Source: Actinomycetota bacterium (GTDB lineage Bacteria; Actinomycetota; UBA4738; HRBIN12). Taken from it: DNA of 64,000 nucleotides. The position numbers and the translations under genes were made by a program. The stretch lies in NCBI GenBank assembly GCA_035288045.1, contig DATEBA010000012.1:15979-79978 (forward strand), written 5' to 3'. The notes below the pieces were generated by a model. It searched no databases. It saw only the letters and a program-made list of their open reading frames with translations, and was not told where the DNA came from. Shown piece after piece: positions 44,442-58,907 of the stretch (within the stretch, counting starts at the first letter, position 1; each line of letters opens with the position of its first letter).

Positions 44442-46194
44442 CGATCTGAAACCCCTGGTAGAGGCTAGGTTGCCGAGGTCATCAAGAGACGTCCTCCTGG
44501 ATCAAGAGGACGCACTAGCGGAGGCGGGGTTCAGGTACGTGGGTCTCCAGCCAGTTCTTGGCGTAAGGGTGGTCTCTCTTGTGAAGCCTCTCCGCGTGGA
44601 AGAAGATCCGGATGCCTTCTGGTCACGACGTCCTCAAGCTTGCGACTACTGCGCCCCTGCGGTACGTGAAGGCGTAGAGCAGCGGCACATGCAACTCAAT
44701 CGAGCAGGATGCCCTCGGCAATCCAAGGGTAGGATCCTCGGCATGCGGATCCGAAGAGCGCTAGCTGTGAGCTCCACAGCATCGATCCTCTTGTTGATGC
44801 TTGCTCCTGTTTCCAGCGTGAGTGGAACGGTTGCTCAGTGTTTCGGGGAACCGGCGACAATCGTCGGCACCCCTGAAGCTGACCGCATCCGAGGGACCGA
44901 TCACGCAGACGTGATCGTCGGTCTTGGGGGTCGGGACGTGATCGTCGGGCGGAAGGGGCTTGACCTCATCTGTGGGAACGATGGACCGGACCGATTGGAT
45001 GCCGGGCGGGCCGGCGACAAGCTCTCGGGAGGCCTCGGCAGCGACGACATCTACGACGGGCGAGGCGACGACATTTCACTCGCGGGCCCAGGGCGGGATC
45101 AGCTGACGAGCATCGTGCAGGCGAGCCCCTGCGACGTGTTTTGCCGCACCTACGACCGATGGAACGACCGGGTGGCCGGTGGCCCGGGGACGGACCGCCT
45201 CTTCATAGATGGGGGCTACGCCAACCTCTCGACGGGTGTCTATGTCACAGATGCCTCCAACGATCGCATCGCGGGCATTGAAGACGTCAGTGGTGGGTTT
45301 CTGAACGAGACGATCATCGGAAACGCTCGTGACAACATGCTGGACGCATACCTTGGCGAGGAAGACATCGTTCGGGGACGAGCGGGTGATGACATCATCG
45401 GCATCTCGGGCAGCGATTTCGAGCAGTCCGAGAACGGCCGCATGTACGGTGGCCCGGGAGACGACTGGCTCGACTTTGAGCATGACGCTCAGGTTGATCT
45501 ACGTGAAGGAACCGCGAGTTCCTCCGGGGGAGAACTTGTGCTTGCGGGTTTTGAGAACGTGCGAGCCAGCGCCAACTCCCTCCTCGCTGGCGACTCGGGA
45601 CCGAACACGCTCATTGGCGAGTTCGGTGTGGACACGCTGATCGGGCGAGCTGGGCGAGATGTCTTGATCAGTCACCTCCGGGATGACTCTCTTGATGGTG
45701 GAAGAGGAACCGATCGCCTTAATGGAGGCAAAGGGACGGATTCGTGTCACCACGGCGAAGTGGTCTCAAATTGTGAGTGAGAGGCCAGGAGGCAGGCCGG
45801 GCTAGCAGCTCTGGAGGCAGCTCGACACCCTGAAGGACGAGATGGAGGAGGGCGACCAGTTCGGGTCGTCCCTCGCCTAGCGCCTCGGGAGCAGGAGGGG
45901 CCGCCAGGCTCCGTTCGCGCCTGGACTTCGTCGCGAGGTCACGGGATCCGGGGAGGGTGCACCGAGCTGGTTTCGCCGTCCGAGCGCTGGGCGCTTTCCG
46001 GCCCCGATTCTTCCCTCCGGTAAGGGGCGGGCAGACGGCCGGTGCCGTACGCCTCGGACACCTGGGAACAGACAGAGCGGTCAACTCCTGGTCAAGGAGC
46101 CGACCGAATCTGACGGTACTCGACGTCACTGGTGTGACGATCGAGACGGGCGTTGAGCAGCAGCGGTGCTGGTCAAGGCATTGCCCTTGACTCT
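44442..46194 (+). mobile_element. Putative degraded integrated islet C at tRNA-Val(GAC), bounded by the first tRNA 3'-half repeat
   Basis: It lies between the intact tRNA 3' end and direct repeat 46195..46237, has a lower-GC leader (44442..44742) and carries a single secreted RTX-like cargo gene. No integrase is present. Confidence 0.45.
44743..45780 (+). CDS. Secreted RTX-like calcium-binding repeat protein; paralog family member 2
   Basis: ATG 44743 with RBS. Signal peptide, CFGEPATIVGT block, G-x-D-x-[IL]-x-G repeats and a C-terminal Cys pair. Colinear with 13025..14098. Confidence 0.7.
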   Translation: MRIRRALAVSSTASILLLMLAPVSSVSGTVAQCFGEPATIVGTPEADRIRGTDHADVIVGLGGRDVIVGRKGLDLICGNDGPDRLDAGRAGDKLSGGLGSDDIYDGRGDDISLAGPGRDQLTSIVQASPCDVFCRTYDRWNDRVAGGPGTDRLFIDGGYANLSTGVYVTDASNDRIAGIEDVSGGFLNETIIGNARDNMLDAYLGEEDIVRGRAGDDIIGISGSDFEQSENGRMYGGPGDDWLDFEHDAQVDLREGTASSSGGELVLAGFENVRASANSLLAGDSGPNTLIGEFGVDTLIGRAGRDVLISHLRDDSLDGGRGTDRLNGGKGTDSCHHGEVVSNCE

Positions 46195-46237
46195 TTGACG
46201 CGGAAGAGGCCAGAGGTTCAAATCCTTTACCGCCCAC
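46087..46237 (+). repeat. att-like repeat 1 of tRNA-Val(GAC): ~105-bp element arm plus 43-bp copy of the tRNA 3' half (46195..46237)
   Basis: TTGACGCGGAAGAGGCCAGAGGTTCAAATCCTTTACCGCCCAC matches the tRNA from the anticodon loop to the 3' end with 1 mismatch. The preceding arm is about 75% identical to the 47821..47930 arm. Confidence 0.8.
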
Positions 46238-47930
46238 CAAGGCCGACGGCGCAATCCCGGATCGCTCAGGACGCCAGATACCGGGCCAGGGCGAACCTCC
46301 GGCCACTACCCTCTTCGCGCGATCCTGCCGCGACGATCCTGCCGTCGGCCTGGATGGCGAGAGCGAAAGCCGTGGCGAACCCACCTCCGAACCTGGTGGT
46401 TACCTTCCCGTCCGACCCAAACGTGTCATCGAGGATCCCGTCAGTCGCGTACCGAGCTAGGGCGAACCGGCCCTCCGTATCGTTCGAAACTTCACCCGAC
46501 GCCACGATCCTGCCGTCGGTCTGGATGGACACCGCGTGAAGGCCGGCATCGCCTGTGGCAAAACGGGTCAGGACTTCGCCGTCCCCTCCAAATGTCTCGT
46601 CGAGGCTGCCATTCCTCCTGTGGCGGAAGAGGGCGAAACCCGCTCCTCCACTCGACCCCCCCACAACGACCTTGCCGTTGGGCTGGATTGCGAGTGCGGA
46701 AGCGCCGCCGTCGGGGTTCAGGACCTTCCCGTCACCCCCGAAGGTGGCATCCAGCGTCCCATCGACGTTGTACCGAGCAAGGGCAAGAGCCGAGCCCGGA
46801 AAGGTGAAGAGGCCCCCCGCCACGACGATCCTGCCGTCAGACTGGACAGCCAAGGCGTCCGCTAGGGCCTCCCCGCGAAATCTCGTCCTCACCTTCCCGT
46901 CGCCCCCGAACGTAGCGTCCCGCGTGCCATCGGTGTTGTACCGGGCGAGGGCGAATCCGGCTCCCTCGAGGGCGAAGGAGACTCCGGCGGCCACGATCCT
47001 GCCGTCGGATTGGATGGATACCGCCGAGGCGGAGGCACCGCCGGCGGCGAGTCTGGTCCGAACTCGTCCGTCACCGCCGAACGTGGCGTCGAGGGTACCG
47101 TTGGTCTTGTACCGGGCGAGGGCGAAGCCGCCCGAGAATTCACCCGCTGCAACGATCTTGCCGTCGGTCTGGATGGCGACTGCGGAAGCGGTGCCGCCGG
47201 GGGTCAGGACCTTCCCGTCGCCCCCGAAGGTGGCATCCAGCGTGCCGTCGGTGTTGTACCGGGCCAGAGCGAATGCCTCGCCTACACGCGATCCCTCGGC
47301 TCGACCCGCCGCAACGATCTTGCCGTCGGCTTGGATGGCGACCCCTGAGGCTAGTGCGGAGACTGTCCGCCGAGGCCAGGTCAAGACCTTCCCATTGCCT
47401 CCGAAGCTCGTATCGAGGTCGCCCGCCGCTGCTGCCGCCGAGGGAGCATTGATCGACAACATGAAGATGAGCGTCGCACTTGCCGCGAGGATCCGAGCCT
47501 GCATCGTGTCAATCTCTCTCTCGAAGTTGCGTCATTAGACCTTCGCCTTCGACACCGGGTCAAGGGTCGGTCCGAGCTGGAGCTCGCGGGAAACTTTGCG
47601 GGAGTGGGAGTAGGAGCCCGCTTCGCCTCTCGCGAACTGGTGGCCGAGTGAATCCGGTGGCTACCGTGGCGAGCTCCACATCAGCCAAGCGATCTACCGT
47701 CGTCCGGTGCCACGGCTGCCTCTGCGAGCCGCTGTCTTCTTCGGCCGCCCCTGCGGTTGATCATTGCGGACCGGCCTGGCCTTGAGGGTGGCCAGTTTCC
47801 TGCTCTTGATTCTGGTCAACCTCTGGTCAAGGAGCCGACGGAATCAGACGGTACTCATCAGTACTCGTGTGGCGAGCGAGAATGCCCGCGAGCAGCAGAA
47901 GTCCTGGTCATGACGCTGTGCGGCACCTCC
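46238..47930 (+). mobile_element. Putative degraded integrated islet D (second tandem unit at tRNA-Val(GAC))
   Basis: Bounded by repeats 1 and 2; single cargo gene (delta-60 repeat protein). Confidence 0.45.
46266..47504 (-). CDS. Secreted delta-60-repeat protein (GxLDxxFGGDGKV...QxDGKIV repeats)
   Basis: Signal peptide followed by about eight ~50-aa repeats with the consensus G-T-L-D-A-T-F-G-G-D-G-K-V ... A-x-Q-x-D-G-K/R-I-V-A-A-G ... ALARY. Confidence 0.7.
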   Translation of the reverse strand: MQARILAASATLIFMLSINAPSAAAAAGDLDTSFGGNGKVLTWPRRTVSALASGVAIQADGKIVAAGRAEGSRVGEAFALARYNTDGTLDATFGGDGKVLTPGGTASAVAIQTDGKIVAAGEFSGGFALARYKTNGTLDATFGGDGRVRTRLAAGGASASAVSIQSDGRIVAAGVSFALEGAGFALARYNTDGTRDATFGGDGKVRTRFRGEALADALAVQSDGRIVVAGGLFTFPGSALALARYNVDGTLDATFGGDGKVLNPDGGASALAIQPNGKVVVGGSSGGAGFALFRHRRNGSLDETFGGDGEVLTRFATGDAGLHAVSIQTDGRIVASGEVSNDTEGRFALARYATDGILDDTFGSDGKVTTRFGGGFATAFALAIQADGRIVAAGSREEGSGRRFALARYLAS

Positions 47931-47973: not shown

Positions 47974-48460
47974 CAGCGAAGTCCCGCCGGTGTGAGTTGA
48001 CGACTCATCGACGCCGTCACCGGATGGACGCTCTTCGAGCAGCGGGAGACTGACTCCGTAGAACCAAGTGTCGCACTTCCTCCTGTCAGTGAGGGAGACA
48101 GTTGCCCAACATGGCGGGCCGATTTCGGACCGCGAATTTGATCCCCGCAGCCCTCGCTCCGGCCCTTCGGCCTCAAACTCACCCACGGCACCGCCCGCTC
48201 ACCCCCACCCGTAGGGAGTCGGTCGGAGTCCTCGCCCCGAGCGCCGTCCTGGGGTTACCTCCCAAGAGAAGTGTTTGCCCAGGTAGATGGCGTCTGGGGC
48301 AACCCCGACCAATGCTCCCCAGACCCTGCCGCCGGACCTAACCCCCCGGAGAGGAAATCCGTCATTAGGCGGATGCATCGTTAGTCCGTTTGCACTAGGA
48401 TTCAGGCACCACCCGGCGTAGCCGGGGTGGAGGAGCGTGACCTGCCTGAGGAGGGGGTCG

Positions 48461-48985
48461 ATGAGGAGAGCCACGGTGTCGCTGGCGGCCATAGTCGTGG
48501 TGGCGATGTTCGCGACGCCCGCGTTCGCCAACGCGGGGGAGCAGTGCCCGGACGGTACGGACAAGTTCGAGGTGAACGGCGACGCAACCGGTGGGTCGTG
48601 GGAGTGGGGCGGCGACGGCATCTCCGTCGACGTGAGCGGCGCCTCTGCGACGATCACCTTGGACGCCGGTGTCGTCATCGACAGCGTCTGCTGGAAGTCC
48701 GGGATCAACGAGGGCCCGCTGGGGTACGCGACGGGTCCATGGGTCGGTCCCACGACGTTCACGATCCAGACGAACAGCGGTCAGTATCTTTCGAACATCC
48801 ACTTCTACCGCGGCGAGTACCCGCCCGATGGGTACGGCCCCAACGCTGCCACCAGCACGAGCGCGCCGAAGGATCAGAGCGCGGTTCGGCTGACGTGGGG
48901 GATCGTCCTGGCGGTTGTGGCTACGTGGGCGCTCACGCGGACTCTGGTTCGCCGGAGACTCGAGACGCGCAAGGTCGAGGAGTGA
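48461..48985 (+). CDS. Surface protein with signal peptide and C-terminal sorting-signal-like tail (R-L-T-W-G + TM + RRRL)
   Basis: ATG 48461 with GAGGAGGGGG RBS. Signal peptide ...ATPAFANAG, a Ser/Thr/Pro-rich linker, SAVRLTWG, a ~17-residue hydrophobic segment and a basic RRRLETRK tail. Confidence 0.6.
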   Translation: MRRATVSLAAIVVVAMFATPAFANAGEQCPDGTDKFEVNGDATGGSWEWGGDGISVDVSGASATITLDAGVVIDSVCWKSGINEGPLGYATGPWVGPTTFTIQTNSGQYLSNIHFYRGEYPPDGYGPNAATSTSAPKDQSAVRLTWGIVLAVVATWALTRTLVRRRLETRKVEE

Positions 48986-49077
48986 TCGGATAGCTATTCG
49001 TTCTTGAGCTGCGCATCCCCCCCCGAGTTCCTGACTGGCTCCGGGTGGGGAGCCGGCTCCTGGGAGAGGGGGGATCG

Positions 49078-49689
49078 ATGAGGCGACTGTCGGTAGCGCT
49101 GTTGGCGGTGCTTGTCGTTGGGCTGGTGGCCGGGCCGGCCGCCGCCGGGAACAAGGGGACGGTGAAGATAGAGGAGGTTCCTATCGACCTCCTGCCGGAT
49201 AACTCGCCGCATCCGGGATGCGATTTCCTGATCGAGTTCTTCCATTATCCGGAGGGCTCCGAGGTTAGTTGGGTGTTCACCGTGCACCCGCCGACCTCGG
49301 ACACCAACGGACCGGGCTCGGTCGTCGGAAGCGACAGCGCGACCCTGGATCCGGAGGACGCCAACAACCACCACCTCAACCTCTCCAGGGTCCAGAACAT
49401 CGAGGCTGGGTTGATCGCGTCCGGCGTTGAGGCGCACCCGCAGCAGGGGTTCCACGTGAAGCTCTCCGTGACCGGGCCCGAGGGCCCGAAGTACAAGGTG
49501 TTCTGGGTCGAGTGCGCAGGCTACCCGCCGCGTGCGGCCCCCGACACGAGCGGCACGAGCGCCGTCACTCCGACGGATGACTCGGCCGCGCGCATCACGT
49601 GGGGCATGCTGGGGGCGTTCCTCGCCGCTGGCGTCGTGCTCCGTTCGATCCTCCGGCGCCGCCTCGCGCTCCGGCGGACCGGCGGCTGA
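49078..49689 (+). CDS. Paralogous surface protein with the same C-terminal tail (A-R-I-T-W-G + TM + RRRL)
   Basis: ATG 49078 with RBS. Signal peptide, a PDTSGTSAVTPTDD linker, SAARITWG, a hydrophobic segment and RRRLALRR. Confidence 0.6.
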   Translation: MRRLSVALLAVLVVGLVAGPAAAGNKGTVKIEEVPIDLLPDNSPHPGCDFLIEFFHYPEGSEVSWVFTVHPPTSDTNGPGSVVGSDSATLDPEDANNHHLNLSRVQNIEAGLIASGVEAHPQQGFHVKLSVTGPEGPKYKVFWVECAGYPPRAAPDTSGTSAVTPTDDSAARITWGMLGAFLAAGVVLRSILRRRLALRRTGG

Positions 49690-49909: not shown

Positions 49910-49984
49910 GGGCGCGTAGCTCAGCGGGAGAGCGCTTGCTTCACACGCAAGAGGTCGCAGGTTCAAAACCTGCCGCGCCCACCA
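49910..49984 (+). tRNA. tRNA-Val (anticodon CAC), CCA encoded
   Basis: Acceptor GGGCGCG/CGCGCCC, anticodon arm CTTGC-TTCACAC-GCAAG and T-arm GCAGG-TTCAAAA-CCTGC. Confidence 0.85.
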
Positions 49985-49994
49985 GACAGGATCG

Positions 49995-50280
49995 GAGGCT
50001 CACAAGGGATTGGCGAAGAGCTCCCGGCCGTGGGTCCCATCGTTGGCGGCGAAGAAGAGGGTCCCAGCGACGTTCGCAAGGGACTTCGGGTGCGAGCCCC
50101 CAGATTCCGGGTAGATGTCGTTGACCTGGACTGTGCCGGCCTCGGTTCCGTCGCTCTTCCAAAGCTCGTAGCCGTCCGTGCCGTCGTCGGCAGCGAAGAA
50201 CAGGGTCCTCCCGACGTTGGTGAGGAACCTTGGGTACGACCTCGCCGATCCGGTTTCTGTCCCGTGTATTCCGGCGATTC
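49995..50280 (-). pseudogene. Remnant of an ELWxxDG-repeat protein gene (no start, truncated)
   Basis: The DNA is alignable, at roughly 75% identity, to the repeat-coding part of 51852..53045 (compare 50150..50230 with 52650..52740). No complete ORF. Confidence 0.5.
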
Positions 50281-50490
50281 ATGGAGCGTGCGCCCGAGTA
50301 CAGCTTCGAGCCCCACGCATACCTCGCGGACGACGAGCATGGAGTGGAGCTCCAGAAATCCCACTACAGGCGGGGCGACCAGACGCTGGACACAAACGAC
50401 ACGTTCGTCTGCCACTTCCGAGACGGCAAGGTCACAGAGACGTGGCTGTCGACAGACGATCCGTACGGCGTGGACGAATTCCTCGGCTAG
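50281..50490 (+). pseudogene. C-terminal fragment of a SnoaL/NTF2-like protein
   Basis: ...TFVCHFRDGKVTETWLSTDDPYGV resembles the C-terminal strands of SnoaL-like polyketide cyclase/NTF2 folds. Only about 70 codons, with no N-terminal half. Confidence 0.35.
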
Positions 50491-50511
50491 CCGCGGGACC
50501 ATCGAGTTGCT

Positions 50512-51843
50512 CTACTCTCCGCGGGCGCTGTGCTCGACGATCGACGCGAGATCGACCCTGGCCAGGTAGGAGTCGAAGCTACCGGCGTTCGACTCGCCCG
50601 CGAAGGTGCCCGAGGTGTCGCCGATCACGAACAGATCGCCGGCCGCGCCCCATCCCCAGCCCACCGTTTCCTCTTCGTCGGTTCCGAATTCGAGTGTCCA
50701 TTGAGCGTCGCCCGTCGTCGGCTCGAACGCCCGGGCGAAGACGTCGTCACCGCCGAGGTTCGTTTGGCCATGGAAGGCGCCACCTGTGGTCCCCACGGTC
50801 ACCACGTCGCCCCGCACCAGCGTCGCGCCCGCGGACGCATCGACGGCCCTCGTGCCGAACTGCCTGGTCCAAAGCCCGACGCCTGCCGGCGAGAATCCGC
50901 GGATGAAGGCGTCGGACCTACCCCTTCTCTCGAACCCGCGGAAGGATCCCCAGGTCTGGCCCGACACGTACACGCCGCTCGCATCGGCCGCCAGCCCCGA
51001 CCCGATGTCGGCCCTGTTGGTACCGAACTGGCGCAGCCACAATCTCCTCCCGTCTCGAGAGAACAGGGCGAGGAACGCGTCCAAGTCGCCGTGAGAGCGC
51101 GCCCCGGGAAGGTGACCGTCGGTGAAGCCGTTCACGTAGATGCCCTGTGGGGCGATCATCGCCGCCCACGCTTCCTCATACCCCCGCCCGCCGAACTGCC
51201 GCAGCCACTCCATCGCTCCCCGCTTGTCGAAGCGGGCGAGGAACAAGTCGGCGCTGCCATGGTTCACACGGTTCGCGAACGCGCCGAAGGTGTACCCGAA
51301 CACGAAGACGCCCGACCGGTCCACCACGATGCCCGCCGCGTAGTCGTCCTCGTCCGTTCCGAACTGCGCCATCCACCGCTCGTTCCCCTCGAGGTCGTAC
51401 CTCGCGACGAACGCATCGGCTCCCCCCGCGCTGGTCTGACCGGGTAACGAACCCGTCGTGGCACCGTCCACGTAGAGGCCAGACGCGTCCGCGCGCGCGG
51501 CGCCGACCTCCTCCCACCTCCTCGTGCCGAACTGCACGGTCCAGACCTCCGAGCCCCGCGCGTCGGTGCGCCTGATCCATCCGTCCGCGTCCCCCTCGCT
51601 GGCCTGCCCCGGGAGGGCGCCGTAGGTCAGACCCCCCGTGAAGACGTCCCCCCCGAAGGAGTCGACCGCGTAGGTGCCGAGCTCCGGAGCCGGAGAGCCG
51701 AACTGATCGACCCAGGCCACGGACCAGGTGATCGCCGCGCTCGGGGGCCCGAGGAGACCAACGAGAACCGCTAGCAACGCAGCGAGCGGGAACGCCGGGC
51801 CGCCCCAGCGACCGGGCGCTCCCGCGGCTCGAGACAGCGTCAT
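50512..51843 (-). CDS. Secreted beta-propeller repeat protein (SBBP-like repeats: W..QFGT...D.A.GV..D.SGVYV.G.T.G...G)
   Basis: Start at 51843 (MTLSRAAG... signal/TM), then about eight ~48-aa repeats. Confidence 0.65.
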   Translation of the reverse strand: MTLSRAAGAPGRWGGPAFPLAALLAVLVGLLGPPSAAITWSVAWVDQFGSPAPELGTYAVDSFGGDVFTGGLTYGALPGQASEGDADGWIRRTDARGSEVWTVQFGTRRWEEVGAARADASGLYVDGATTGSLPGQTSAGGADAFVARYDLEGNERWMAQFGTDEDDYAAGIVVDRSGVFVFGYTFGAFANRVNHGSADLFLARFDKRGAMEWLRQFGGRGYEEAWAAMIAPQGIYVNGFTDGHLPGARSHGDLDAFLALFSRDGRRLWLRQFGTNRADIGSGLAADASGVYVSGQTWGSFRGFERRGRSDAFIRGFSPAGVGLWTRQFGTRAVDASAGATLVRGDVVTVGTTGGAFHGQTNLGGDDVFARAFEPTTGDAQWTLEFGTDEEETVGWGWGAAGDLFVIGDTSGTFAGESNAGSFDSYLARVDLASIVEHSARGE

Positions 51844-51851
51844 CGACCTGG

Positions 51852-53045
51852 TCACGGAATGGTCACGAAGTCGTCCAGGAACGACCGCGCGATCGCGATG
51901 TCGTTCCTCCACGCCCAGGATATGCCGTGGCACTGTCCGGTCTCACCGTCGCCTACGGCGACCGCGACGTTGGAGTTCCCGAGGAAGTAGGGCGCGCCCG
52001 CATCTCCGCTGCAGACGCCCCCCTGTCCGGTCGCGGTCGAGTTGATCTGCAGCTCGATGGTGCCCGGGTCGATCGCCGCGATCTGGGCCGTCGCCCACCG
52101 CCGCGCTCCGTCGAACCAGTAATCGCACGGCCCAGAGCCCGAGCAGTCGGCCTCGACGCCGTAGCCGACCACCGTGAGCGACTGGCTCTTCTTCACCGAC
52201 TCCAGCTGGTCGAGCGTAGGCAGCCGGGCCGGAGTGATGCCTCGAACGGGCCTGGCGAGGATCGCAACCCCGTAGAGGTTGAAGCCGTTGGTGAAGTTCA
52301 CCTCCGGGTGCAAGTACCCGGCCTCGACGGTTCGGAGGGTCGACGTCTCTGGATCGAGCACCGGGTCGAACGAGACCACCGCCCGACCGCCGATCGACTG
52401 GGCGTATTCCACGCCGCCCGGGCACTCCGGAACCGTGAGGAACGCGGTCGAGGAGATCAACACACCCGAACAGAAGGCGAAGACCTCACCGTCCGGATCC
52501 TCCAGCACCATCACCCCGACGTTCGGGTCGCTCTTCCACAACTCGCGGCCAGTGATGCCGTCGTCTGTGGCGCGGAAGAACAGGGTCCCTCCAACGTTGA
52601 TGAGCGTGCCCGGGTACGAGCCCCCCAATCCTGGGACGATGTCCTTCACTTGCACTGTCCCGGCCTCGGTCCCGTCGCTCTTCCACAGCTCGGGGCCGCT
52701 GATGCCGTCGTTGGCGCGCAAGAACAGGGTTCCCCCGACGCTGGTGAGGAGCCTTGGGCGGAACCACGGACCCGACATGGCCGATCGGGGGTTGATGTCC
52801 TTCACCAGGGCCGTACCGGTTTCTGTCCCGTCGCTCTTCCACAGCTCGGGGCCGCTGACGCCGTCGTTGGCGCGCAAGAACAGGGTCCCTCCGACGTTGG
52901 TGAGGCTGCCGAGGTGCGAGGTCGTCGATCCGGGGTTGATGTCGCGGACCAGGTAAGGACTCCCGGCGGCGCTTGCAGAGGGCGCGGCAGGAAGCGATGC
53001 CACGAGACAGACGAGGATCAGCGCCGCCTTTCGTACGGTTCGCAT
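51852..53045 (-). CDS. Secreted protein: three ELWKSDGT-type repeats + trypsin-like (S1) domain with all three catalytic residues substituted
   Basis: Start at 53045 (MRTVRKAALILVCLVASLPAAPSASA) with AGGAG RBS. Repeats GTLFLRANDG(V/I)SGPELWKSDGTE x3. The S1 fold landmarks CSGVLIS...LTVPEC (His->Glu), GVAILARP (Asp->Gly) and CSGDAGAP (Ser->Ala) are all altered. Confidence 0.6.
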   Translation of the reverse strand: MRTVRKAALILVCLVASLPAAPSASAAGSPYLVRDINPGSTTSHLGSLTNVGGTLFLRANDGVSGPELWKSDGTETGTALVKDINPRSAMSGPWFRPRLLTSVGGTLFLRANDGISGPELWKSDGTEAGTVQVKDIVPGLGGSYPGTLINVGGTLFFRATDDGITGRELWKSDPNVGVMVLEDPDGEVFAFCSGVLISSTAFLTVPECPGGVEYAQSIGGRAVVSFDPVLDPETSTLRTVEAGYLHPEVNFTNGFNLYGVAILARPVRGITPARLPTLDQLESVKKSQSLTVVGYGVEADCSGSGPCDYWFDGARRWATAQIAAIDPGTIELQINSTATGQGGVCSGDAGAPYFLGNSNVAVAVGDGETGQCHGISWAWRNDIAIARSFLDDFVTIP

Positions 53046-53184
53046 CGCTCGGCTCCTCGTTGGCCACCGGCAGGGGGAAGATTTCGACAAGCGAGACTCT
53101 ACTGATGTCGGAGGAAGCAGCGCAAGGCTCTGGCTGATTCGCCGATAGATACCTTGGGTTCGCGTCCTCTGTCCCCCCTGACGC

Positions 53185-53238
53185 GATAACCTTCTCGATT
53201 CGCTCGCCTCTGACGTGCATAATGTCCAAGGCGCACAG
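53185..53238 (+). repeat. Left part of the att arm of the tRNA-Val(CAC) islets, interrupted by IS30
   Basis: GATAACCTTCTCGATTCGCTCGCCTCTGACGTGCATAATGTCCAAGGCGCACAG parallels 58794..58846; the last 24 bp are identical. Confidence 0.75.
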
Positions 53239-54693
53239 ACCAGGTTCAACGGGTCCTCGCAACACCGGCTGGCTGGACTGAGAGTAGGTGATCGTTCAAA
53301 GCTTCGGCGGGCGTGCGCCAGTCGAGAGTCTTGCGCGGCCGAGTGTTCAGCGCCAGGGCGACGGCTTCGAGATCATCGGCGTTGTGTTTGCTCAGGTCGG
53401 TTCCTTTGGGGAAGTACTGGCGCAGCAGTCCGTTGGTGTTCTCGTTCGTGCCGCGCTGCCAGGGGCTGTGCGGGTCACAGAAATAAACCGCGAGACCGGA
53501 GCCGATCCGCAGTTCGGCGTGTTTGGCCATCTCCTTGCCTCGGTCCCAGGTGAGGGAGCGCCGAAGCTGTGCGGGGAGTGTCGTGATCGTGGACGCGATA
53601 GCGTCGCGGACGGCCTCGGCCCCGTACCCGGCGAGCGCCGGCCCGTTCTTGACTCGTGGCTCGGTGCCGTAGCCCTCCAGGCGGGGTAGGTGCAGCAACA
53701 TTGTGAACCGGGTGGTTCGCTCGACCAGCGTCCCGATCGCGGATCGGTTCAGCCCGATGATCAGGTCCCCTTCCCAGTGCCCGGGCACCGCACGATCCGC
53801 GACCTCGGCTGGGCGGGCGCTGATCATGACTTCGGGTGTGATGAAGCCGTCGCGGCGCTGTCGGGAACGAGCTCGAGGCACGCGCAGTGCTCGACCGGTG
53901 CGCAGACACGAGACCAGCTCCCGGCGCAGCGCCCCGCGGCCCTGCACGTAGAGCGCCTGGTAGATCGCCTCGTGTGAGATCCGCATGGACCCATCATGAG
54001 GGTGCTCGACACGCAGCCGGTTCGAGATCTGCTCCGGGCTCCAGGACTTGGCCCAGCGCCGGTCTTGGCGGCGACCGTGCCGACGACCGATCCAGCGCAC
54101 CTCGGGTCCGGGCACGAGCTCACCGTCGGGTCGGGTTATCGAACCGGCGAGGCGGTCCTGCACGTACTCGCGCAGCTGCTCGTTCGCGGCGAGCTTGGAG
54201 ACCTTCGGGCGGCTGGCTCGCCGCTCTGCGTGCCACTGCGCCGTCGACGCCCGGTACTCCAAGCGGTACGTGCGAGTCGAGGCGTTGCGGCGGAGCTCCC
54301 GCGAGATCGTTGACGGCGACCGACCCAACCGTCGGGCGATCGCGCGCACCCCGACGAGCTGGGCGTGCAGGAGCGCGATCTCCTCGCGTTCAGCAAAGGA
54401 CAGGTAGCGACCAGACAAGTGGACTCAGCGAGATGGGTGGCATCCCGCCAGCGTGACGGAACCACCTCGCCCCGACCGCCAGCGACACGCCGGCCTCGCC
54501 GGCGGCGTCCTCACTGGATGCGCCACGCGCTATCGCCTCCCAGAACGGCACTCGGTCTTCGCGCCGAGCCGTCGAAGGCCGCCCCGGGGACCACATCTGA
54601 CCGCGCATCGCACGGATCGCCTGCTGACGCTCGCGAACACCCATCGCGCACCACCTCCGTCTCGAGGTGTTGCGACGACCACTTGATTCCGCC
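53239..54693 (-). mobile_element. IS30-family insertion sequence, apparently intact (1455 bp)
   Basis: 28-bp imperfect terminal inverted repeats (ACCAGGTTCAACGGGTCCTCGCAACACC vs reverse complement of the right end; 19/28 matches, the inner 10 identical). Flanked by a 3-bp CAG direct repeat (53236-38 and 54694-96). The uninterrupted target sequence is visible at 58823..58860. Confidence 0.75.
53246..54418 (-). CDS. IS30-family DDE transposase
   Basis: N-terminal HTH (LSFAEREEIALLHAQLVGVRAIARRLGRSPSTISRELRRN) and a DDE domain (HWEGDLI, DRGKE, NENTNGLLRQYFPKGTDL), 390 aa. Confidence 0.9.
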   Translation of the reverse strand: MSGRYLSFAEREEIALLHAQLVGVRAIARRLGRSPSTISRELRRNASTRTYRLEYRASTAQWHAERRASRPKVSKLAANEQLREYVQDRLAGSITRPDGELVPGPEVRWIGRRHGRRQDRRWAKSWSPEQISNRLRVEHPHDGSMRISHEAIYQALYVQGRGALRRELVSCLRTGRALRVPRARSRQRRDGFITPEVMISARPAEVADRAVPGHWEGDLIIGLNRSAIGTLVERTTRFTMLLHLPRLEGYGTEPRVKNGPALAGYGAEAVRDAIASTITTLPAQLRRSLTWDRGKEMAKHAELRIGSGLAVYFCDPHSPWQRGTNENTNGLLRQYFPKGTDLSKHNADDLEAVALALNTRPRKTLDWRTPAEALNDHLLSVQPAGVARTR

Positions 54694-54757
54694 CAGCGCA
54701 TAGACCCGGGTGCTTCACACGCAAGAGGTCGCAGGTTCAAAACCTGCCGCGCCCACA
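54694..54757 (+). repeat. Right part of att arm plus direct repeat 1 of the tRNA-Val(CAC) 3' half (54712..54757)
   Basis: CGCATAGACCCGGGT + GCTTCACACGCAAGAGGTCGCAGGTTCAAAACCTGCCGCGCCCACA is identical to tRNA positions 49938..49981. Confidence 0.85.
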
Positions 54758-54773: not shown

Positions 54774-55363
54774 ATGTCAGAGGGTGTGTGTAGCCTCTTC
54801 GGGTCGGCGCGGTGCGCGAGCACAGCGTCGGTTGAGCGGCTGATCGAGTTCCTGGAGTCGGGCGGGATGCCCACGGCGATCGAGAACGTCAAACGCGAGC
54901 ACCTCGAGAGCTCATCGAGCACTTGGTCGAGACGAGGGCGCCGGCGACGGCCTCGAACAGGTTCCGAGCCGTGAAGGGGTTCTTCGCGTGGGCCACGCGC
55001 GACGAGGAGGTGATCGCCGAGTTGCCGATGCGGAACATGGCTTCCCCGCGGGTCCCCGAGTCGCCGCCGGACCTGGTCAGCGAGGACGAGGTGCGCGCGC
55101 TGCTCGCGACCTGCCGCGGCAACGCGTTCGACTCTCGGCGCGACGAGGCGATCATCCGGCTCCTCTACGACACCGGCGCCCGGCGAAGCGAGGTCGCGAA
55201 CCTGCGCCTCGACGACGTCGACGCAGCCCTCCCGCAAGGCGCGAGGGCCAAACGGAGGCTCGCCGGATGGCTCGGACCGAGAAGCTCTCGCCGGAGCAGC
55301 GATCCCTACGCGCGCGTCTCGCTGCGCACGCGCTTCACTCCTCGCGGGACTCTCGCGAGCTAA
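54774..55363 (+). pseudogene. Tyrosine recombinase (phage-integrase family) pseudogene
   Basis: The N-terminal SAM-like/core-binding region and catalytic box I (RDEAIIRLLYDTGARRSEVANLRLDDVD) are present. A 20-bp tandem duplication (54897..54936, GAGCACCTCGAGAGCTCATC|GAGCAC...) shifts the frame. The downstream box II/Tyr region is absent. Confidence 0.65.
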
Positions 55364-58793: not shown

Positions 58794-58907
58794 GATACTT
58801 CCTCGCTTCGCTCGCGCCCGAGGTGCATAATGTCCAAGGCGCACAGCGCATAGACCCGGATGCTTCACACGCAAGAGGTCGCAGGTTCAAGACCTGCCGC
58901 GCCCACA
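58794..58907 (+). repeat. att arm plus direct repeat 2 of the tRNA-Val(CAC) 3' half (58862..58907), uninterrupted version
   Basis: GTGCATAATGTCCAAGGCGCACAG|CGCATAGACCCGGATGCTTCACACGCAAGAGGTCGCAGGTTCAAGACCTGCCGCGCCCACA. It equals 53215..53238 joined to 54697..54757, with 2 mismatches. Confidence 0.85.

Follow-up and report, generated by a model that had tools for sequence, protein, structure and literature searches.

Is the gene at positions 51,852 to 53,045 of this Actinomycetota DNA a protease, a binding protein or a wreck left behind in a decaying island? The stretch analysed here, which we call the window, is 64,000 nucleotides (nt) of contig DATEBA010000012.1, and the gene encodes, on the minus strand, a chimeric protein of 397 amino acids (aa) whose frame is intact in the list of open reading frames (ORFs). 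In this protein, beta-propeller blades of the ELWxxDGT type stand at the N-terminus and a trypsin-fold domain of the S1 family stands at the C-terminus, and the two are joined without a linker. The answer that we favour, and regard as probable, is that the gene is an intact secreted chimera whose dead-trypsin domain and ELW blades would make up a non-catalytic binding protein. The gene and its parts are as follows.

51852..53045, minus strand: complete gene of the chimeric secreted protein (ORF list; exactly the same protein as NCBI HLB61458.1).
52968..53045, minus strand: predicted Sec-type signal peptide MRTVRKAALILVCLVASLPAAPSASA, residues 1-26 (sequence reading).
52812..52967, minus strand: ELWxxDGT repeat 1, residues 27-78, a four-stranded propeller blade (TIGR04534; AlphaFold2, pLDDT 88.8).
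52656..52811, minus strand: ELWxxDGT repeat 2, residues 79-130 (TIGR04534; AlphaFold2 model).
52527..52655, minus strand: ELWxxDGT repeat 3, residues 131-173, ending after ELWKSD, a blade without its outer strand (TIGR04534; AlphaFold2).
51855..52526, minus strand: S1/trypsin-fold pseudo-protease domain, residues 174-397, without the N-terminal VNGxLDGNAH segment (Pfam PF00089, AlphaFold2, Foldseek).
52425..52427, minus strand: codon of Glu207, at the position of His57 (phmmer, family profile and MAFFT alignments).
52275..52277, minus strand: codon of Leu257, at the position of Asp102 (MAFFT with active relatives).
51999..52001, minus strand: codon of Ala349, at the position of Ser195, GDAGAP against GDSGGP (family profile and MAFFT alignments).

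The gene starts with the ATG at 53045, and the Shine-Dalgarno sequence GAGGAG lies 7 nt upstream. Read by eye, the N-terminus has a basic n-region (MRTVRK), then a hydrophobic core and then an ASA cleavage motif; it is predicted to be a Sec-type signal, with which the protein would be secreted. The part behind it matches the NCBIfam profile TIGR04534 (ELWxxDGT_rpt) in four stretches with 170.1 bits against a cut-off of 65 (E-value 7e-51). A first-pass annotation, made from the sequence before this analysis, had described a secreted protein fused to ELWxxDGT repeats, and both points agree with these results.

For the C-terminal domain, the same annotation had pointed to the S1 landmarks CSGVLIS..LTVPEC, VAILARP, TVVGYG and CSGDAGAP, all of which are present, and had proposed a profile search and a structure prediction as checks. 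Residues 189-365 score 24.8 bits against the Pfam Trypsin profile PF00089 (E-value 2.2e-5), whose gathering score is 20.6, and the family profile matches S1 proteases in PDB at an E-value of 6e-5. We modelled the ELW half and the S1 half separately with AlphaFold2 (AF2). It turned out that the model computed for the C-terminal domain from 42 family sequences reached a mean confidence (pLDDT) of 81 and a pTM of 0.85, and that Foldseek matched it to hundreds of S1 proteases with probability 1.0, with TM-scores of 0.65-0.73 to trypsins, factor Xa and chymase. The top match is the trypsin of Saccharopolyspora erythraea (E-value 5e-11, TM-score 0.68), while heparin-binding protein is among the top matches and the Umb1 protein UmbA is found among the matches too. 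In the model, the C-terminal 224 residues are a chymotrypsin/trypsin two-beta-barrel fold. Besides, Cys192/208 and Cys345/372 take the places of the pairs Cys42-58 and Cys191-220, do not vary across the family and are predicted to form disulfides; a subclade-specific inserted loop contains Cys301/307.

The catalytic triad was mapped in three ways: phmmer was run against granzyme B, the family profile was compared with proteases in PDB, and MAFFT aligned the domain together with bovine trypsin and 142 relatives. His57 falls on Glu207 and Ser195 falls on Ala349 in all three independent alignments. Asp102 falls on Leu257 in the MAFFT alignment (FNLYGVAI in the window against FNDVGVAI in the active relatives), in which the closest active relatives were judged most informative, whereas phmmer against granzyme B puts it on Gly254 instead. 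Since residues 253-259 contain no Asp at all, full substitution of the triad holds in every register of the alignment, and the presence of Glu, Leu and Ala at the positions of His57, Asp102 and Ser195 rules out the serine-protease mechanism for this domain. The triad had earlier been read as Glu, Gly and Ala. Its full substitution, its Glu and its Ala stand, but the Asp position is Leu257 in the alignment with active relatives, and the Gly comes two residues later. The call of a pseudo-protease is borne out, as the canonical triad is absent in all alignments.

To what extent is this loss peculiar to the window? A search with the domain only returned 155 homologs, which are 54-80% identical to the window domain and nearly all cover 98-100% of it, and the clade counts at least 150 clusters. 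Nearly all of the homologs are stand-alone proteins of about 244 aa, with a signal peptide, then V/I-N-G-x-L-D-G-N-A-H-P-N-V-G-V-M and then the domain; their predicted mature N-terminus is V/I-N/S-G after the signal peptide. The hosts are uncultured Actinomycetota, one of them labelled Thermoleophilaceae. The window domain keeps all 46 invariant columns of the clade. Of 120 homologs, 110 have Asn at the place of His57 and 113 have Gly at that of Ser195, and the Gly of LYG does not vary among them; N/L/G is the majority triad in the MAFFT alignment. In the closest subclade (P0002-P0006), positions 57 and 195 are hypervariable, with E/G/G/S/T and A/S/Q/E/G respectively, in the midst of motifs that do not vary. 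Two of these proteins (P0002 and P0006) keep Ser195 and have lost His57, while P0123 is H/D/G, with His and Asp kept and Gly at 195; as far as aligned residues can tell, these forms look like steps of a stepwise triad loss.

The clade has active relatives. When 1.84 billion cluster representatives were searched with the profile, 4370 relatives came up, and H/D/S is kept in 131 of the 142 best full-length cluster representatives (50% identity clusters). The active S1 peptidases of Gaiellaceae, other Actinomycetota and Bathyarchaeia (L017, L019, L020, L022, L023; P0125-P0269) have identities of 27-33% and share with the window clade the domain length, the N-terminal I/V-x-G-G..DG..HP.VG motif and the Cys pairs. 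They retain His, Asp and Ser and are presumably proteases, whereas the window clade has replaced all three. For instance, the Gaiellaceae loci L017 and L019 (33% identity) have AGHC, ADLAVV and GDSGGP and share with the window clade a C-terminal tail, A[RK][ST]FL.[DT]FV.LP, while the Bathyarchaeia loci L020, L022 and L023 (27% identity) have His, Asp and Ser intact and a similar N-terminal motif, ITGN..P..VG. The occurrence of the active subfamily in metagenome-assembled genomes (MAGs) of archaeal Bathyarchaeia points to a cross-domain distribution or gene transfer. By these alignments the pseudo-trypsin clade is nested in an active S1 family, from which it arose, and the clade-wide loss together with this nesting indicates that the triad was lost long ago and not by local decay.

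With the clade at hand, we can ask whether the domain is still a hydrolase that works through other residues, such as Glu207 or a conserved His, Ser or Asp elsewhere. Conserved residues near the old active site do exist, namely Asp194 in the GD motif, the GQGG loop and the HP motifs, and in about two thirds of the main clade a Ser stands two positions after the old Ser195 (GDGGSP). In the window and in one third of the family, however, Ala stands in place of this Ser, and the His57 position can be occupied by N, E, G, S or T. No invariant alternative pair of nucleophile and base was found in the family, and one residue (position 192) beside the oxyanion hole is deleted in most of the main clade. 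We therefore hold another hydrolytic activity to be very improbable, and a binding module rather than an enzyme, as the first-pass annotation put it, can reasonably be inferred.

Selection on the domain was examined as well. The ratio of nonsynonymous to synonymous substitution rates (dN/dS) is 0.19-0.42 for pairs within the clade and 0.17 when the window is paired with the sequenced relative nearest to it, and by these values the dead domain is maintained by purifying selection. The window domain is about 23-25% different from its nearest known relatives. In a leave-one-out comparison it shows 15 departures at 116 positions on which 90% or more of the family agree, these departures being mostly shared with its stand-alone sisters, which have 12-20 departures each in the same comparison. 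The changes found only in the window lineage are one conservative change (Val to Ile) at 115 conserved sites against nine changes at 106 variable sites, and the conserved/variable change ratio of this lineage is below that of all three stand-alone sisters. At the level of sequence this argues against decay, as the window domain shows no excess of it, and a part of the lineage may predate the fusion. The first-pass annotation had pictured a family that is duplicating and decaying within the islet. This picture is not borne out, given an ancient, clade-wide triad loss and the single change at conserved sites.

Decay does occur elsewhere in the clade. Frameshifted stand-alone copies, broken near the C-terminus or in mid-gene, were found in other MAGs (L014, 5824-6663; L015, 5680-6641), which means that individual paralogs decay in some genomes. 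One MAG, CAVVAK, holds two copies (L013 and L014).

The stand-alone genes often have regulators as neighbours. A 914-aa regulator with AAA_16, TPR and GerE domains (LAL-type) is located just upstream in five independent loci (L001/L002, L004/L005, L006, L009 and L011), at a distance of 77 bp in L001-L006. In L010, L013 and L015, an extracytoplasmic function (ECF) sigma factor and a single-pass membrane protein are located upstream in overlapping frames, and an alpha/beta hydrolase adjoins the stand-alone gene in two loci. The linkage to regulators is not universal in the clade (exceptions are L008, L012 and L014), and no partner gene common to all stand-alone loci was found. These regulator neighbours suggest dedicated regulation or a role in extracytoplasmic signalling.

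What the window adds to this clade is the fusion. The junction reads ELWKSD|PNVGVM and is in frame, and the ELW repeat stops where GTEAGT would come next. The fused pseudo-trypsin has neither the signal peptide of its clade nor the VNGxLDGNAH segment, and carries the ELW signal peptide and three blades instead. Asp194 is kept, while the equivalent of the free N-terminal Ile/Val16 is absent, the ELW blades being in its place. The combination of ELW repeats with an S1 domain was found nowhere else among the 155 domain homologs, the 150 listed representatives and the top 120 of 3213 ELW proteins, with the exception of a 345-aa variant (P0001) that is described below. Among the proteins searched, the ELW fusion is thus limited to one bacterial population.

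The AF2 model of residues 27-176 (pLDDT 88.8) contains three blade sheets, which are four-stranded except for the third, which has three strands and no outer one. Its best structural matches are five- to seven-bladed beta-propellers, with a target coverage of 0.24-0.31. Three blades are too few for a closed ring, so the modelled propeller is incomplete unless it is closed by oligomerisation. At the DNA level, repeat units 1 and 2 are 73% identical, and the pairs 1/3 and 2/3 are 61-62% identical. Near-sameness is limited to the C-terminal halves of units 1 and 2 at the protein level, and an exact stretch of 34 nt is common to repeats 1 and 2. Tandem Repeats Finder reported no repeat array in the ELW region, since units that are only 61-73% identical in nucleotides are too diverged for it. 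There are indeed three repeats, as had been noted at first, but they cannot be called near-identical.

An observation was also made on the first strand of the pseudo-trypsin after the junction, PNVGVMVLEDPDG (residues 171-183, 52500-52535, minus strand), which resembles the ELW segment that it replaces, GTEAGTVQVKDIVPG. In particular, GVMVLED of the first trypsin-domain strand resembles GTVQVKD of the absent outer strand, and by this likeness, read from the letters, the former might substitute for the missing outer strand of blade 3.

The gene is located in a degraded island next to a tRNA gene. To figure out its surroundings, we list the features that mark the islands and their contents.

49910..49984, plus strand: tRNA-Val(CAC), the integration site of the islands (ARAGORN).
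54712..54757, plus strand: 3' half of tRNA-Val repeated in direct orientation, at which island A ends on the right (exact 30-mer match).
58877..58906, plus strand: third copy of the tRNA-Val 3' end, with 1 mismatch, the right end of island B (sequence match).
About 49988..50263, minus strand: ELWxxDGT gene relic of about 1.7 repeats (translation; tblastn).
50230..50490, plus strand: SnoaL-like fragment, 86 aa, with the C-terminal 60 profile positions only (Pfam SnoaL_2, 25.6 bits, below the cut-off of 27).
50512..51843, minus strand: secreted SBBP beta-propeller repeat protein, 443 aa (Pfam SBBP and NCBIfam LipL53-like matches; gene calls in L024-L026).
53246..54686, minus strand: intact IS30-family element with a 390-aa transposase at 53246..54418 (NCBIfam transpos_IS30, 259 bits).
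54923..55363, plus strand: remnant of a tyrosine recombinase, 146 aa, with which island B begins on the left (Pfam PF00589, 32 bits).

The 3' end of tRNA-Val is present three times (49953-49982, 54727-54756 and 58877-58906; 0 expected by chance), and between the tRNA and the gene of threonyl-tRNA synthetase (ThrRS) these direct repeats delimit two degraded islands in tandem, 4.8 and 4.1 kb long. Island A (49985..54757) contains, in order from the tRNA, the ELW relic, the SnoaL-like fragment, the SBBP gene, the fusion gene and IS30. The SBBP gene starts 9 nt past the stop codon of the fusion gene, and the two are probably co-transcribed. The IS30 element, bounded by inverted repeats of 21 nt (53246-53266 and 54666-54686), lies 200 bp upstream of the fusion gene. 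There is no functional integrase in island A, and island B has the 146-aa remnant only, which covers just the first ~50 positions of the Phage_integrase profile. Neither an LAL regulator nor a second pseudo-trypsin gene was found in the window. The islands are flanked by housekeeping genes, with LexA, NrdR, class II ribonucleotide reductase and dUTPase on one side and ThrRS, HIT and elongation factor G (EF-G) on the other.

The ELW relic by the tRNA had been taken for a truncated second copy of the repeat region. The ELW stretch is real; that it is a recent duplicate is not supported, as it is a diverged relic that shares 57% aa identity (tblastn) and 76% nt identity with the fusion repeats and has no S1 part. 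A start codon is lacking, a stop codon stands before the relic, and the relic stops at the island edge, with 3 nt between it and the tRNA 3' end.

Several side observations concern the same region. An RTX calcium-binding repeat protein (44470-45780, plus strand) and a DUF5122 beta-propeller protein (46266-47504, minus strand) are encoded between two tRNA sites, just after a tRNA Gly-Cys-Val cluster, with a lower GC content of 0.63-0.66. Genes of secreted repeat and propeller proteins, with SBBP and ELW counted in, form a hotspot by the tRNA sites at 44-53 kb. In the gap between the RTX and DUF5122 genes, ARAGORN reports a 92-nt "tRNA-???" with a two-base anticodon (tt) at 46148-46239 (plus strand), which overlaps mechanical ORFs at both ends of the gap and is probably a false positive or a pseudo-tRNA. 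Besides, two adjacent genes at 48437-48985 and 49045-49689 (plus strand) encode small paralogous proteins of 182 and 214 aa, each with an N-terminal signal peptide, a C-terminal hydrophobic segment and then a basic RRRL tail. No LPXTG is visible in them and they have no Pfam match above the gathering score; judged by its composition, the tail may be an uncharacterised C-terminal anchoring signal.

Is the fusion itself real? The identical fusion gene is present on 11 contigs that we read; the 8 compared come from 8 different ENA/JGI samples and show zero nucleotide differences, and the gene order IS30, fusion and SBBP is found wherever the flanks are present. An assembly artefact was considered and is ruled out by the same junction on contigs from 8 different samples. 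One further contig, L007 (ERZ27254762), is 99.5% identical over 11 kb but lacks 156 bp, corresponding to residues 63-114, from repeat 1 into repeat 2. It encodes the 345-aa variant P0001 (L007 10141-10363 against window 52703-52858). The deletion is either a real recombinant or a collapsed repeat in a short-read assembly, and the 34-nt stretch shared exactly by repeats 1 and 2 could cause recombination or assembly collapse alike.

The main rival to a functional binder is a neutral or dying chimera, that is, an accidental in-frame join in a decaying island, maybe expressed, which has no selected function and has not yet collected disabling mutations. Several findings suit it or weigh against our preferred interpretation. 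First, the fusion is a singleton of one near-clonal population with zero sequence variation. Second, the protein comes with three blades that are too few for a closed propeller, without the conserved N-terminal DG..AH segment of the pseudo-trypsins (invariant or present in at least 90% of members), and with low-confidence loops around the former S1 pocket (pLDDT < 50, domain residues 198-211). Third, the window copy has no upstream regulator, unlike its stand-alone relatives, and sits behind IS30 among gene fragments; island A holds the ELW relic, the SnoaL fragment and IS30, and the neighbouring island holds the truncated integrase. The frameshifted family copies in other genomes and the variant with the 156-bp repeat deletion are in line with such a fate, too.

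On the other side, the frame of 397 codons is intact and comes with a Shine-Dalgarno sequence and a signal peptide. The GC content at third codon positions (GC3) is 0.83, calculated for the longer ORF 51852..53249 that contains the gene, and resembles that of other window genes. The gap of 9 nt to the SBBP gene looks operon-like. Only one conservative lineage-specific change is seen at 115 conserved sites in spite of a divergence of ~23-25%, with the reservation that the lineage may partly predate the fusion. Weighing these points, we consider the neutral chimera a serious possibility, though a distinctly less likely one, and stay with the intact secreted binding protein.

How might such a protein work? 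It would act outside the cell as a non-enzymatic binder. By analogy with other dead trypsins, the vestigial substrate cleft may hold a peptide or protein ligand. The ELW blades could add a second binding surface, possibly by pairing with another copy or with a propeller fragment, which is proposed because three blades cannot close a ring. In S1 proteins, the free N-terminus pairs with Asp194 and plugs its pocket. The fused domain has lost this free N-terminus and may have been left in a zymogen-like state, unlike its stand-alone relatives.

The stand-alone clade deserves more attention than the chimera, as it is conserved, numerous and linked to regulators. It is a sizeable clade in uncultured soil Actinomycetota and is undescribed: literature searches on bacterial S1 pseudo-proteases turned up no description of it, and a search on ELWxxDGT found no publication. 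In databases its members are labelled "trypsin-like serine protease" (e.g. P0013, P0026 and P0035), and the window protein is named in NCBI "ELWxxDGT repeat protein", from "Actinomycetota bacterium". Both labels miss the dead triad, and protease inventories of soil MAGs are inflated by this clade as a consequence. Characterised dead trypsins of bacteria are few, UmbA and MamO being the examples found. With its active and partly degenerate relatives, the clade would be a workable system to find out what a bacterial pseudo-protease binds. The fusion, for its part, is a small case of domain shuffling in a decaying tRNA island and, on present evidence, involves no new mechanism.

Among known systems, the closest in composition is UmbA of the Streptomyces umbrella toxin particles (PDB 8w20), in which the cleft of a dead trypsin binds the extended N-terminus of UmbB and the propeller is a lectin (Zhao et al. 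2024, PMC11062931). Like the window protein, it is actinobacterial and secreted and combines a trypsin-fold domain that has no complete triad or activity with beta-propeller repeats. Could the window protein then be an UmbA-like subunit, whose dead trypsin grips the extended N-terminus of a partner while its propeller lectin targets surface glycans, in a toxin particle or a similar assembly? Both are built of a non-catalytic trypsin fold and propeller repeats, the window protein comes from an actinomycete, Foldseek matches it to Umb1 chains (8w20; E-value 2e-10, TM-score 0.65), and positions 57 and 195 vary in the closest subclade, as a diversifying binding cleft might. However, UmbA has an N-terminal trypsin domain, a helical linker and one or more complete C-terminal lectin domains, while the window protein has the propeller first and the trypsin last, three blades and no linker.

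The genes identified at 38.9-63.9 kb are housekeeping genes, RTX, DUF5122, SBBP, IS30 and the integrase remnant, and none of them is umbB or umbC (ALF-repeat polymorphic toxin); no UmbB- or UmbC-like gene (ALF-repeat, coiled-coil toxin) is found in the islands or nearby. No 8w20 chain is among the 60 PDB matches listed for the family profile (to an E-value of 0.21), Foldseek scores UmbA no higher than ordinary proteases, and the stand-alone relatives have no common partner gene. Judged by the reversed order, the absence of umbB/umbC nearby, the lack of specific sequence similarity and a structural score not above that of ordinary proteases, the window protein is not a member of the UmbA family. 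Its domain comes from another S1 subfamily. An UmbA-like subunit is thus improbable.

A broader version, to which we also give little chance, is that the 244-aa pseudo-trypsins are a new class of peptide-gripping adaptors under LAL and ECF regulators, with the fusion as a "lectin plus adaptor" chimera on the UmbA principle. If it were true, there would be an undescribed extracellular targeting or toxin-delivery assembly outside Streptomyces, and the pairing of dead trypsin and propeller would have been reinvented independently in the opposite domain order.

The vertebrate serine-protease homologs, such as azurocidin, also called heparin-binding protein (HBP; PDB 1ae5 and 1a7s), haptoglobin and hepatocyte growth factor (HGF), resemble the window protein in having an S1 fold, replaced triad residues and a binding role. 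They are eukaryotic proteins not fused to a propeller, and as a rule just one or two residues of the triad are lost in them (Asp102, for instance, is still there in HBP). In the window domain, all three triad residues are replaced.

MamO of magnetotactic bacteria is a magnetosome-membrane protein of the HtrA type (S1C) and holds metal via a di-histidine site; this motif and this context are not seen in the window protein. Hershey et al. 2016 (PLoS Biol, PMC4794232) present MamO as a trypsin-fold pseudo-protease that binds transition metals directly in magnetite biomineralization, and on that description it is, like the window protein, a bacterial trypsin-fold pseudo-protease, with a role that is not proteolytic.

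For the other half of the chimera, the ELWxxDGT proteins recovered contain 2 to 6 ELW motifs, many of them being fragments from short contigs; the window protein has only three blades, of which the last is incomplete. The top 120 of the 3213 ELW proteins have no S1 domain, whereas the window protein has one. In conclusion, catalytically dead S1 homologs are already known, and what is added to them here is a one-off fusion with ELW repeats.

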